From assembly GCA_963740085.1 (NCBI GenBank), contig CAVUCU010000003.1, positions 107,680-171,679 of the forward strand: a stretch of DNA of 64,000 nucleotides. The letters run 5' to 3'. This document shows positions 33,867 through 38,926 of this stretch, in pieces (the stretch's first letter is position 1; each line of letters opens with the position of its first letter). The notes under the pieces were generated by a model that saw nothing but the letters and a program-made list of their open reading frames with translations, searched no databases and was not told the DNA's origin. A program made the translations under genes and the position numbers. This DNA is from Nitrospirota bacterium. Lineage in GTDB: Bacteria; Nitrospirota; UBA9217.

Positions 33867-35876
33867 ATGAAATTCTTTAATAAATCGGAAGACAATCATC
33901 AACTATTCGTTATTGAAGAACTTCGCCGGAAGATCTCAGAGGCTGTGCTGCCACAACCGGTACAGAAGATCGCTGAACAGGAACTCGATCTGCTGAACAG
34001 GATCAGTTCCGCGTCGGCCGAGCACACGATCGGCATTACTTACATCGACTACCTCGCTTCCCTTCCCTGGAACAAAAAGACCGAGGACAACCTTGACATG
34101 GTCCGTGCTGAGCGGATCCTGAACGAGAACCACTTCGGGTTGAACAAGATCAAGGAAAGGATCATGGAGCACCTTGCCATCAAGGTGCTTATCATGAACA
34201 GGAAGGCACGGGTCCTGATCGTCGACGACGAGGAGATCGCAAGAAAAAATCTGGCGCATATCCTGATGAAGGAAAATTACGATGTAGTCGCTGTTGCTGA
34301 CGCCGAAACGGCAATCCGGGAGTTGGAGTCTTCTGAAATTGATGTAGTGCTTACCGACCTGCGCATGGGCAAGATCGACGGCATGGACCTGCTGGACCGG
34401 GTCCGGATAAAACACGCCGACACGAAGGTCGTTATGGTAACGGGCTATGCCACGGTCCCTTCGGCAATCGAGGCCATGCGGAAGGGCGCATTCCATTACC
34501 TGGCCAAGCCCTACAAACTCGATGAGGTGCGCGAGACCGTAAAGCGGGCAATGGAGCAGCGGGCGCTCAAACCGAGCACCAAGGGCACCGTGCTCTGTTT
34601 CACCGGCCCTCCGGGAACCGGCAAGACCTCGCTCGGGAAATCCATCGCCCGCGCCCTTGGGAAAAAATTTACGCGGATCTCCCTCGGCGGTCTCAAGGAT
34701 GAGGCCGACATTCGCGGACACCGGCGCACCTATGTGGGCGCCAAGCCCGGCAGAGTGATCGAAGAGCTTCGCCGGGTGGAATCGGCCAATCCCGTCATCA
34801 TGCTTGACGAGCTCGACAAGATCGGTCATGACTTCAAGGGAGATCCCGCTTCGGCCCTGCTTGAAGTGCTCGACCCGGAGCAGAACCGCTCATTCACGGA
34901 CCACTACCTCGATGTTCCCTTCGACCTTTCGAGCGTCATGTTCATCCTGACCGCGAACGTCCTCGACTCCATCCCCGCCCCGCTCCGCGACCGCATGGAG
35001 GTCATCAAGTTTACCGGCTACACGCGGGAAGAGAAGACCCATATTGCTCGGCAATTCCTCTGCGTCAAACAAATTCGGGAAAAAGGCCTCTCCCAAAACC
35101 AGGTCGTCTTCACGGATGAGGCCGTGGACAGGATCATCCAGGAATACACGCGCGAGGCCGGCATCCGGAACCTCGAACGAAGGATCGCCACGATCTGCCG
35201 GAAGATCGCCCGGGAATCGCTCCAAACCGCGGGCAGCGCGGAGATCGTGACCATAACCCCCGGGTCAGTCCAACGCTACCTCGGAAGGAGAAAGTTCCAG
35301 TTCGAAGTGATCGAAGAGCAGGACCGCGTCGGCGTGGCCACCGGACTCGTGCGCACCGAGACCGGCGGCGAGATCATCTTCGTCGAAGCCGCCCAGATGA
35401 AGGGAAACAAGGAACTCATCATCACCGGATCCCTCGGTGACGTGATGCGCGAATCCGCCCAGGCCGCGCTCAGCTATATCCGGAGCAACGCCGGGTCCTT
35501 CGGCATTGCTGAAGACTTTTTTGAGCGCCAGGACATCCACATCCACGTACCGTCCGGCGCGATCCAGAAGGATGGCCCTTCTGCCGGCGTCACCATTCTC
35601 GCGGCGCTCCTGTCGCTGTTGACCAAACGGCCTGCGCGCAGGGACGTGGCCATGACCGGAGAGATAACGCTGACCGGACGGATCCTCCCCGTCAGCGGCA
35701 TCCGGGACAAGGTACTCGCGGCCAGGCGTGCCAGGGTCAAGATCGTGCTCGTGCCCGCGCGAAACCGGGTCGAGGTGGAAGAACTGTCCGAAGATATACG
35801 AAAGGACGTCGACATCCGGCTTGTCGACACCGTCGCTGAAGTGGTGGATTCTGTGCTTGCCGGTCATCAGAGATGA
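33867..35876 (+). CDS. Lon-family ATP-dependent protease lacking the LON N-domain and carrying an inserted response-regulator receiver domain
   Basis: The start is set at ATG 33867 (MKFFNKSED). The Lon helical linker ([19 protein letters not shown]...[18 protein letters not shown]) is followed by a full REC domain ([33 protein letters not shown]). The AAA+ module has GPPGTGKTS and VIMLDELDK. The protease dyad is KDGPSAGV...GIRDKVLAA. Confidence 0.8.
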
Positions 35877-37400
35877 ATTACACTCCGAGCATCAGACAGA
35901 AGATAACACTCGGCTATTACGCCATCGTCGCCATGATCATCGGATTGTCCGTGTTCACCTTTCTGGAACTGCGGTACATCGAGAAGAAGATCATGTTCGG
36001 CGAGGCCATCTCGGAATTTTTCGATGCCACACTTGAGATCCGGCGCTTCGAAAAAAATTATTTCCTCTACGAGCAGCATTCGGACTACGACGAGAATATC
36101 CAATACGTGTCCCGGGCCCAGGACCTCATCGACAGCAACATCGCCGGGTTCACCTCGATAGCATCTGCTGAGCAGATGGCAAACGTACAGGAAAGTCTTA
36201 AAAAGTATAAGAACTTGATGGACCAATACGCGAAGATCGGCAGAGCAATACACGGTACGAAAGAACCTGTTTGCCGCAGGGATCCGGACCACCGGGAAAA
36301 ACATAATCACCATAGCAGAGAATATCTCCAAGACCGAGCGGAAGAACCTTCAGCAGATCCTGAGCAGTTCCCGAAACATCCTTCTCGTCTCGATCGTGCT
36401 TCTCTCTCTGGCGGCTATCGCCATAGGCCAGATACTTTCGCGAATGGTGGTCAAACCGCTGAAATCGCTTGAGAAGAGCATGGGGGTTATAGCCGGGGGT
36501 ACGTTCGAGCGAATTGCCATAAAATCCAAAGACCGTGAGATCGTCTCGCTCATGAACGCGTTCAACAAAATGTTGAAAGAGCTCGAACTGCATGAGCGGC
36601 ATCTGATCCAGTCCGAGAAGCTCGCGTCCCTCGGCACCCTTCTCTCCGGCGTTGCGCATGAATTGAATAATCCCCTGTCGAACATCTCATCGTCGAACCA
36701 GATACTGATGGAGGAATTCAAGGAAGCCCTCGAGAAGCAGTCTTCGCTGCCCTGGCCGCTGGACCCCGGCTTCACCAAGGAACTGCTCTCCCAGATCAAC
36801 GATCAGACGGACCGGGCCCGGAATATCGTCCGTTCACTTCTCGACTTCTCGCGGGACAGGGCGTTCAAAAAAGAATCGCTGTCGCTCAAGAACCTTTTTA
36901 ACGAGACCATCCAGTTCGTGAAGGGACAGGTGCCGACGAACATAGTAATCTCCCTTTCCATACCCGAGGACATCGCGATCTTTGCGGACAAACAGCGGAT
37001 GCAGCAGGCATTTTTAAATTTGATCAAGAACGCCATTGATGCGATCTCATCCGAGGAAGGGACGGTCGCCATCACGGCCGTGAAGCGCCGGGCGATGGAC
37101 GACATTGAAAATGAAAAGACCGGAATCTACAACTATCTCAAGTACCGCGGAAAGTGCACGCTGGACCAGGACACGGTCGACATCGAAATACGGGACAGCG
37201 GATCCGGGATACCGCTCGATATCATTTCGAAGATCTTCGACCCTTTTTTCACGACCAAGGATGTCGGCAAAGGCTCCGGGCTCGGCCTGTTCATTGTCCA
37301 CGAGATCATCAAGGAGCATGACGGCTGCATTGCGGTGGACAGCCATCCTGACAAAGGCACAAGGTTCCTGATACGGCTGCCGATCGGGCAAGAAGCCTGA
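35873..37400 (+). CDS. Sensor histidine kinase (2 TM, HAMP, HisKA, HATPase_c) interrupted by one frameshift
   Basis: Its ATG overlaps the Lon stop (ATGA). Track ORFs 35873..36472 (TM1 plus sensor, plausible up to ...LMDQYAKIG) and 36396..37400 (TM2, [29 protein letters not shown]) are joined by the frame open from 36219 (AEQYTVRKNLFAAGIRTTGKNIITIAENISKTERKNL...). Confidence 0.75.
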
Positions 37401-37508
37401 ACCACGGATGACGAAGAATTCAATTTGGACACGAAAGGCGCGAATGAGCCAATCTCACGAATAACAACCTTGTTGTTTCGTGTAATTCGACTCTTTTTGC
37501 GTCGTTCG

Positions 37509-37524
37509 TGGCAACACATTTGAT
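37509..37524 (+). promoter_or_regulatory. Weak sigma54-like motif upstream of the NtrC-type regulator gene
   Basis: TGGCAA-cacat-TTGAT, 41 nt upstream of ATG 37565. Both core elements are degenerate. Confidence 0.3.
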
Positions 37525-37564
37525 AAAGTCGCTTTTCTACCGATTTCTCTGGAGTGAGACAACC

Positions 37565-38926
37565 ATGCAAGATCAGGCAAGACTACTCATCATCGATGAC
37601 GAACGGATCGCGCTCAGAAACCTCGAGCATGTTATGAAGAAGGAAGGCTACGACGTGACAAGCACGCAGAGCGGGCCGAATGCGCTCAAGCTGCTCGATG
37701 AGCAGCAGTTCGACGTGGTGCTCACGGACCTGCGCATGGAAAAGGTGGACGGCATGCAGATCCTGAAAAGGACCCGCGAGTTCTACCCGGACACGGAAGT
37801 GATCATGATCACCGGTTATGCCACGCTCGACTCGGCAGTCGAGACCATGAAGCACGGCGCGTTCTACTACATCGCCAAGCCGTTCAGGCTTGAGGAAGTG
37901 CGCAAGGTCGTACAAGAGGCGGTGAACAAGGTCCGGCTTAAAACCGAGAACCGCCATCTCCGGGAACAGCTTGAGACCTACCAGGGCAAGGTCAAGATCG
38001 TCACCCAGGACCCGACCATGCTGAAACTGCTCGACACCGCGCACCAGATCGCGCCCACGGACTGCAACGTGCTCATCACGGGCGAGAGCGGGACGGGTAA
38101 GGAACTCTTTGCGCGGTTCATCCACCTGAACAGCGGCCGCGCCGGAGGGCCGTTCTTCGCCGTCAACTGCGGCGCCTTTAACGAGGAGCTTTTATCGAAC
38201 GAGCTCTTCGGCCACGAAAAAGGCGCCTTCACCGGCGCGAACAACGCGAAAAAAGGGATCATCGAAATGGCCTCGGCAGGCACGCTCTTTCTCGATGAGA
38301 TCACCGAGATGCCGCCATCGATGCAGGTGAAACTCCTTCGTGTCATTCAGGAAAAGGAGGTCCTGCGCGTCGGCGGCACCGAATCGCTCAAAGTGGACGT
38401 GCGGTTCATTGCCGCGACGAACCGGGATATCCATGATTCCATGAAGACCGGCGCCTTCCGCCAGGACCTCTACTTCAGGCTGAACGTGATCTCGATCCGG
38501 ATCCCGCCTCTCGCAGAACGCAAAGACGACATCCCCCTGCTCTGCTACTATTTTTTAAAGAAATACGATGTGCTGATGAAAAAAACCGTGGCCGAGATCA
38601 GCGAGGAAGTGCTCGCACTGCTCATGAACTATGACTTCCCCGGGAATGTGCGGGAACTTGAGAACATCATCGAACGCGGAGTGGCGCTCACGAATGGCGG
38701 CGCTATCGAGACCGGCCATCTGCCCGAGGACCTGCGGGAACTCAGCATCAAGACCTTCCGGAAGAAGGAGGGCAGGATACCGTCGCTCGATGAGCAGGAA
38801 CAGACATATATCCAGTGGGTGCTCGGCGAGGTCGGCGGAAACAGGACCCTTGCGGCCCAGATACTCGGCATCGACCGGGTCTCGCTCTGGAGAAAGCTGA
38901 AGAAGTACGGGCTGGACGCGGAATGA
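37565..38926 (+). CDS. Sigma54-dependent response regulator (NtrC family)
   Basis: The start is set at [26 protein letters not shown] marks the REC domain. The AAA+ module has GESGTGKE and [10 protein letters not shown]. The C-terminal HTH is AAQILGIDRVSLWRKLKKYG. Confidence 0.9.
   Translation: MQDQARLLIIDDERIALRNLEHVMKKEGYDVTSTQSGPNALKLLDEQQFDVVLTDLRMEKVDGMQILKRTREFYPDTEVIMITGYATLDSAVETMKHGAFYYIAKPFRLEEVRKVVQEAVNKVRLKTENRHLREQLETYQGKVKIVTQDPTMLKLLDTAHQIAPTDCNVLITGESGTGKELFARFIHLNSGRAGGPFFAVNCGAFNEELLSNELFGHEKGAFTGANNAKKGIIEMASAGTLFLDEITEMPPSMQVKLLRVIQEKEVLRVGGTESLKVDVRFIAATNRDIHDSMKTGAFRQDLYFRLNVISIRIPPLAERKDDIPLLCYYFLKKYDVLMKKTVAEISEEVLALLMNYDFPGNVRELENIIERGVALTNGGAIETGHLPEDLRELSIKTFRKKEGRIPSLDEQEQTYIQWVLGEVGGNRTLAAQILGIDRVSLWRKLKKYGLDAE

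Follow-up and report, generated by a model that had tools for sequence, protein, structure and literature searches.

The 64-kb window analysed here (64,000 nt of contig CAVUCU010000003.1, from a Nitrospirota soil metagenome-assembled genome, MAG) encodes a Lon protease with a two-component receiver inserted into it (REC-Lon), followed on the same strand by a sensor histidine kinase and an NtrC-type sigma-54 activator. These three genes form one unit, which is very probably the Nitrospirota ortholog of the DVU3303-3304-3305 three-component system of Desulfovibrio vulgaris. The idea behind this system is already published and the locus adds no new principle. The genes of the unit and the probable target operon next to it are located as follows (window positions).

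33867–35876, plus strand: REC-Lon protease, 669 amino acids (aa); open reading frame (ORF), Pfam and NCBIfam
35873–37400, plus strand: sensor histidine kinase, 509 aa if base 36245 is skipped; Pfam
37565–38926, plus strand: NtrC-type sigma-54 enhancer-binding response regulator, 453 aa, with a receiver, an AAA+ domain carrying GAFTGA, and HTH_8; Pfam and NCBIfam
30622–33600, minus strand: probable target operon encoding a 56-aa protein, a 167-aa protein, p83, a TauE/SafE permease and a tandem Usp protein; ORFs

A previous sequence-only reading had described this layout, and most of it was confirmed. The REC-Lon ORF of 669 aa lies where it had been placed, its stop overlaps the kinase start within ATGA at 35873–35876, and the activator ATG at 37565 is preceded by a spacer of 164 nt (37401–37564). 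The stop/start overlap suggests translational coupling of Lon and kinase. The unit also runs divergently, as proposed, from a minus-strand module, named module B in that reading, with a promoter-like TGGCAC-N5-TTGA at 33649–33663. In this divergent operon, TauE and Usp were recognised by Pfam, while p83 is a membrane protein of 83 aa. A second, paralogous kinase/activator pair with its own Usp/TauE module adjoins the unit in the window.

The receivers of REC-Lon and the activator are unusually close to each other. Among the 59 receivers of the genome they are reciprocal best matches (137–139 bits, 51% identity), with the next best receiver at 100–108 bits. A tree of 128 receivers places the Lon and activator receivers, without exception, in one clade with a support of 99/99; this clade leaves out the 53 other receivers of the genome and the paralogous activator. 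Helix alpha1, the kinase-docking helix of receivers, is 53% identical between the Lon and activator receivers (for other receivers the value is 14% on average and 33% at most), and the identity in beta5-alpha5 reaches 59%. Judged by these comparisons, the two domains are sister paralogs with a common kinase-docking helix.

Full-length REC-Lon was found in about 50 of 301 sampled Nitrospirota genomes and in many Desulfobacterota, among them Desulfomonile, Syntrophobacter, Desulfobulbus, Halodesulfovibrio and Maridesulfovibrio sp. FT414. Synteny was counted at 45 loci from both phyla with enough flanking DNA. A kinase/activator pair adjoins REC-Lon in 36 of them, in the order Lon, kinase, activator at 18 loci and with the adjacent pair in another orientation at a further 18. 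A TauE-family permease is present in 35 of the 45 loci, usually together with p83 and Usp and divergent from REC-Lon. The linkage outlasts rearrangement, for example at L069, L081 and L086. Conservation of the three genes, which the sequence-only reading had named as a check, therefore extends across two phyla, either as the complete trio or as REC-Lon with an adjacent pair. The 56-aa and 167-aa proteins, searched by tblastn with the window sequences as queries, were found at most Nitrospirota loci and at none of the Desulfobacterota loci. At three Nitrospirota loci (L071, L075 and L083), REC-Lon lies directly downstream of, and divergent from, a 'B'-type paralogous kinase/activator pair and not an 'A'-type pair, which hints at partner switching between paralogous systems.

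The corresponding D. vulgaris genes have been studied by three groups of authors. Rajeev et al. (2011) suggested that DVU3303 (a response regulator with a Lon protease), DVU3304 (a kinase) and DVU3305 may together form a three-component system for general stress; they reported that DVU3305 bound its own operon and the divergent DVU3302-3298 operon in DAP-chip (DNA-affinity-purified-chip) experiments, proposed that phosphorylation is needed for active DVU3303, and noted Lon-response-regulator-associated orthologs in Thermodesulfovibrio yellowstonii (PMC3333781). DVU3303-3305 were later listed without a sigma-54 promoter (Kazakov et al. 2015; PMC4641369), and pairwise cofitness among the three genes exceeded 0.9 (Trotter et al. 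2023; PMC10102598). The proposal that one kinase would serve both receivers is thus backed by the receiver paralogy, the alpha1 helix, the conservation of the trio and the cofitness in D. vulgaris (PMC10102598). We regard phosphotransfer from the kinase to the Lon receiver as likely on these grounds.

The region between the unit and the divergent operon contains the following elements.

33828–33842, no strand assigned: UAS1, GTTGTAAAATGCAAC, one mismatch to the DVU3305 palindrome, 25 nt upstream of the Lon ATG
33741–33755, no strand assigned: UAS2, GTTTTATTATGCAAT, degenerate copy of the palindrome in a conserved block, centred 87 bp from UAS1
33809–33837, plus strand: candidate sigma-70-type promoter of the Lon operon, TTGCAT-17-TAAAAT, with its −10 element inside UAS1
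33807–33814: conserved block TGTTGCAT in the alignment of 21 intergenic regions
33680–33690, no strand assigned: TAA-N4-TTGA block of conserved columns between UAS2 and the sigma-54 promoter
33649–33663, minus strand: sigma-54 promoter of the divergent operon, TGGCAC-N5-TTGA, one mismatch

As activator palindrome we used GTTGCR-N3-YGCAAC, derived from Table S9 of PMC3333781. A 16-nt version with an N4 spacer gave no match; the motif is 15 nt long with N3, because an additional base is present in the published sequences. UAS1 is the only match with at most one mismatch in the window, and it is near-invariant in the 21 aligned intergenic regions. Across a larger set, a palindrome with at most one mismatch occurs within 400 nt upstream of REC-Lon in 55 of 75 loci, where chance would give 0.59 matches per 64 kb over both strands. 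In the Desulfobacterota loci L087–L118, the palindromes are typically paired 87–90 bp apart, about eight helical turns, and the same spacing is seen in the window.

On the other side of the region, the GTGCCA of the divergent sigma-54 promoter is invariant in 21 loci, and the genome carries rpoN (G000:C3:21668-22144). Counted upstream from the predicted sigma-54 start, the palindromes lie at ~110 and ~197 nt. This is a typical enhancer geometry, and both are placed as putative enhancers for this promoter. Module B had been suggested as a target of the activator; the two sites at enhancer distance from a conserved sigma-54 promoter, together with the DAP-chip result in D. vulgaris (PMC3333781), support it as the predicted target. 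The conserved TAA-N4-TTGA block between UAS2 and this promoter may represent an IHF site, which it resembles. Both hexamers of TTGCAT-17-TAAAAT fall within the most conserved blocks of the 21 intergenic regions, and the D. vulgaris operon lacks a sigma-54 promoter (PMC4641369); the element may thus serve the Lon operon as its sigma-70 promoter. Its overlap with the main palindrome implies that the activator could repress its own operon.

Within REC-Lon, the receiver occupies a well-defined position:

34209–34562, plus strand: receiver inserted in Lon between the pre-AAA helix and strand beta1/Walker A; Pfam, alignment to 3M6A and AlphaFold2 (AF2) model

The protein consists of a helical N-terminal segment (residues 8–110), the receiver (115–232), a flexible linker (233–241), the AAA+ domain, the Lon lid and the S16 protease domain. 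Pfam assigned Response_reg to residues 116–225 (96 bits), AAA to 243–382, Lon_lid, and Lon_C to 463–664, and TIGR00763 matched with 735.7 bits (cut-off 608) in two stretches split by the receiver. When REC-Lon is aligned to B. subtilis Lon (3M6A), residues 16–108 correspond to chain positions 10–102 and residues 234–668 to positions 102–534, so the receiver is a clean single-point insertion into Lon. The two canonical Lons of the same genome match REC-Lon in the same split manner and are 58–59% identical to it over the AAA+/lid/S16 part. No Pfam match to the N-terminal LON substrate-binding domain (PF02190, ~240 residues) was obtained for REC-Lon, and the protein starts at a position equivalent to that of the N-truncated B. 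subtilis construct 3M6A. In an AF2 monomer model (mean pLDDT, predicted local distance difference test, 81), five N-terminal helices precede a complete (beta-alpha)5 receiver at 115–232, which a low-confidence linker at 233–238 joins to the AAA+ core. The receiver is joined 4 residues past the last N-terminal helix and ~9 flexible residues ahead of the Walker A strand. The monomer model supports these domain boundaries; the position of the receiver in the hexamer is beyond its reach.

The residues expected for both activities are conserved. When REC-Lons are aligned with canonical Lons, G247–S255 and D314/E315 (Walker A and B), the pore-loop residue Y289, S572 and K615 prove invariant. Six REC-Lons of 48–77% identity all retain receiver residues D120, D121, D164, T192, Y211 and K214, namely the acidic pocket, acceptor Asp, Thr, aromatic switch and Lys. 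A search of a representative library for distant REC-Lons returned one further cluster of this architecture only (P0122). Long, high-scoring matches from the library were rejected as REC-Lons, as they contain tandem AAA+ modules and lack a receiver. In these seven Lon relatives (P0121, P0124, P0125, P0126, P0129, P0138 and P0156; 889–1675 aa), a single protease domain follows two or three AAA+ modules in tandem, which have Lon lids.

The kinase comprises a transmembrane segment, a sensor region of ~135 aa, a second transmembrane segment, HAMP, HisKA and HATPase_c. The sensor region had no family match in Pfam. The gene is present and starts at the ATGA overlap, as the sequence-only reading stated, but it is split over two frames in this assembly and is not a single ORF. 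The cause is one extra base:

36245–36245, plus strand: extra base that frameshifts the kinase; alignment to L007 and Logan contigs of X1 and X5

This base was found by DNA alignment to the relative L007, which is 89–91% identical and perfectly syntenic and in which the kinase ortholog is intact (509 aa). A public Logan contig of run X1 (729 bp, 5 mismatches) lacks base 36245, and so does a contig of X5. When the base is skipped, the reading frame yields 509 aa with the complete domain set. The paralogous kinase (28810–30397, minus strand) is also broken by a single extra base, near 29526, and its L007 ortholog is an intact protein of 523 aa. Relative to L007, the kinases of both mirrored modules are thus frameshifted by one base each. 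Both insertions are probably assembly errors of the 7-contig MAG. In the kinase of the unit, the frameshift most likely goes back either to such an error or to a lesion private to this strain and is no property of the system as such. As a separate observation, the sensor regions of the two paralogous kinases (residues ~33–165, 35969–36367; paralog 29441–30397) share a conserved segment, R(R/H)(F/H)EKN(Y/F)FLY, and neither region has a Pfam match.

The spacer between kinase and activator was re-examined with a different outcome. It contains an imperfect hairpin, as had been noted, although ~10 nt away from the position given (37456–37482 instead of 37466–37492), and this segment is the tip of a larger structure:

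~37430–37510, plus strand: long imperfect hairpin in the spacer, fold z = −2.4, with its tip at 37456–37482

The weak sigma-54-like motif at 37509–37523, which had been listed alongside the hairpin, has two mismatches to TGGCAC-N5-TTGC. Matches of this quality occur at chance level in the window (51 found, 54 expected), and the motif is unconserved. Across orthologous loci the spacer varies from 4 to 333 nt, with unrelated and often palindromic sequence; its motifs are consequently unconserved, and an internal sigma-54 promoter was rejected on its chance frequency and on a lack of spacer conservation that extends to the 91% relative. The TGGCA of the motif adjoins the 3' arm of the lineage-specific hairpin, and a search for the hairpin as a genome-wide repeat found no other copy in the genome. 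These features are lineage-specific and hence no evidence for the unit. The spacer (37401–37564, and the same spacer in L037–L066) appears as a hot spot of unrelated palindromic insertions, several of which have CACGAAGG...CCTTCGTG-type arms in common. Contigs from runs X1 and X2 lack 2 nt at 37438, inside the spacer, a further indel difference from the assembly.

We propose the following working model for the unit. The membrane kinase, with its extracytoplasmic sensor, would autophosphorylate and hand the phosphoryl group to the two sister receivers. The phosphorylated activator would bind the two palindromes 87 bp apart and switch on the sigma-54 promoter of the operon for the small proteins, p83, TauE and Usp, and it would probably also occlude the sigma-70-type promoter of its own operon. 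Phosphorylation of the Lon receiver would be predicted to act as a switch on the ATP-dependent degradation of a limited set of substrates, with the chances about even that it activates rather than inhibits Lon.

Several points weigh against this model or against the assignment to DVU3303-3305. In D. vulgaris, chlorate makes DVU3303-3305 detrimental and the transporter DVU3299 beneficial (PMC10102598), and with these opposite phenotypes a simple scheme in which the system activates the transporter is a misfit. The cofitness of the first gene could in part reflect polar effects of transposon insertions. Our assignment of orthology draws on Desulfovibrio-type MAG loci (L105, L109 and L155), the published statement on Thermodesulfovibrio and the common motif, and it is qualified to that extent. 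The DHp helix of the kinase is almost invariant among orthologs, leaving little variation from which kinase–receiver covariation could be read. In the assembly the kinase is out of frame (frame A, 35873–36472; frame B, 36219–37400). Nine of the 45 loci lack the kinase/activator pair at the thresholds used, so REC-Lon can occur apart from it. Finally, our literature search found no biochemical work on receiver-Lon proteins beyond the three D. vulgaris papers.

The loci without the pair could also mean that the three genes are mere neighbours, with REC-Lon an independent housekeeping Lon paralog served by another kinase or by acetyl-phosphate. Such a reading gains from the indirect, comparative nature of the predicted phosphotransfer and from a genome with 59 receivers and many kinases, but it does not account for a linkage kept across two phyla and through rearrangements, for the overlap suggestive of translational coupling, for the sister relationship of the receivers or for the cofitness above 0.9 (PMC10102598), and we consider it highly improbable. 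That the unit is decaying in this strain, with both kinases (including that at 28810–30397) genuine pseudogenes and the two receivers orphaned, is suggested by the 1-nt insertion in each kinase relative to L007. It is nevertheless unlikely: the inserted base is missing from the X1 contig (729 bp, 5 mismatches) and from X5, each kinase has a single lesion and is otherwise free of stops and deletions, the remaining genes of the unit are undamaged, and a MAG of seven contigs is typical of long-read assemblies, in which indel errors would be expected.

A third possibility concerns the role of the receiver itself. It might serve primarily not as a phospho-acceptor but as a recruitment module in place of the N-domain, pairing through alpha4-beta5-alpha5 with either the activator's receiver or the kinase; the signalling partner caught in this way would be degraded or sequestered by Lon, which would amount to a built-in feedback. 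The substrate-recognition N-domain is indeed missing from REC-Lon, the two receivers are closest paralogs with 59% identity in beta5-alpha5, and receivers of the NtrC1/DctD type dimerise through the alpha4-beta5-alpha5 face. Against this stand the phospho-acceptor residues, whose invariance across homologs of 48–77% identity argues for real phosphorylation, the kinase-docking helix alpha1 as the best conserved feature between the two receivers, and the loci in which REC-Lon occurs without the pair. We hold it to be unlikely. The two ideas are not mutually exclusive. In a bolder version, the receiver would have done more than add a switch to Lon and would have replaced its substrate-recognition head; as the sister paralog of the activator's receiver, it could bring the activator, perhaps in its phosphorylated form, to the protease by phosphorylation-dependent pairing. 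This version is a long shot; if true, the pathway would carry its own signal-dependent terminator.

The present analysis sharpens the published hypothesis in several respects. The two receivers are identified as sister paralogs with a common docking helix, and the site at which Lon is interrupted is fixed with single-residue precision. The module of REC-Lon, kinase, activator, p83, TauE and Usp is kept in two phyla of mostly sulfur-cycling anaerobes, and the layout of enhancer, sigma-54 promoter and candidate autorepression has been phylogenetically footprinted. The system should be easy to take to the bench in tractable Desulfovibrio.

Compared with DVU3303-3305, the unit shows the same order of receiver-Lon, kinase and sigma-54 activator, a divergent membrane/Usp operon with an anion permease, the palindrome GTTGCR-N3-YGCAAC upstream of the Lon gene, and a Lon operon without a sigma-54 promoter. 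It differs in belonging to another phylum and a soil MAG, with Desulfovibrio-type REC-Lons only 47–53% identical, in the 56-aa and 167-aa proteins that start the target operon, in the paralogous kinase/activator pair and second Usp/TauE module alongside, and in the kinase frameshifted in the assembly. REC-Lon shares the AAA+ domain, the lid and the S16 Ser-Lys protease domain with canonical LonA (3M6A, Meiothermus, E. coli), but it lacks the N-domain of ~240 residues, and a complete receiver sits in the loop that leads from the last helix before the AAA+ core to the Walker A strand.

Regulated proteolysis through two-component receivers is known from RssB and CpdR, which are separate receiver adaptors controlling ClpXP. 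In both cases a two-component receiver governs AAA+ proteolysis, whereas in the present unit the protease is Lon and contains the receiver within its own chain. If our reading is true, a kinase gating an AAA+ protease through a fused receiver would be a distinct mode of regulated proteolysis, unlike the adaptor-based RssB and CpdR. The branching itself has a counterpart in the chemotaxis pathway from CheA to CheY and CheB, in which one kinase serves two receivers. There, as presumed here, one of the two outputs is enzymatic; in the present unit the predicted branches would lead to sigma-54 transcription and proteolysis.

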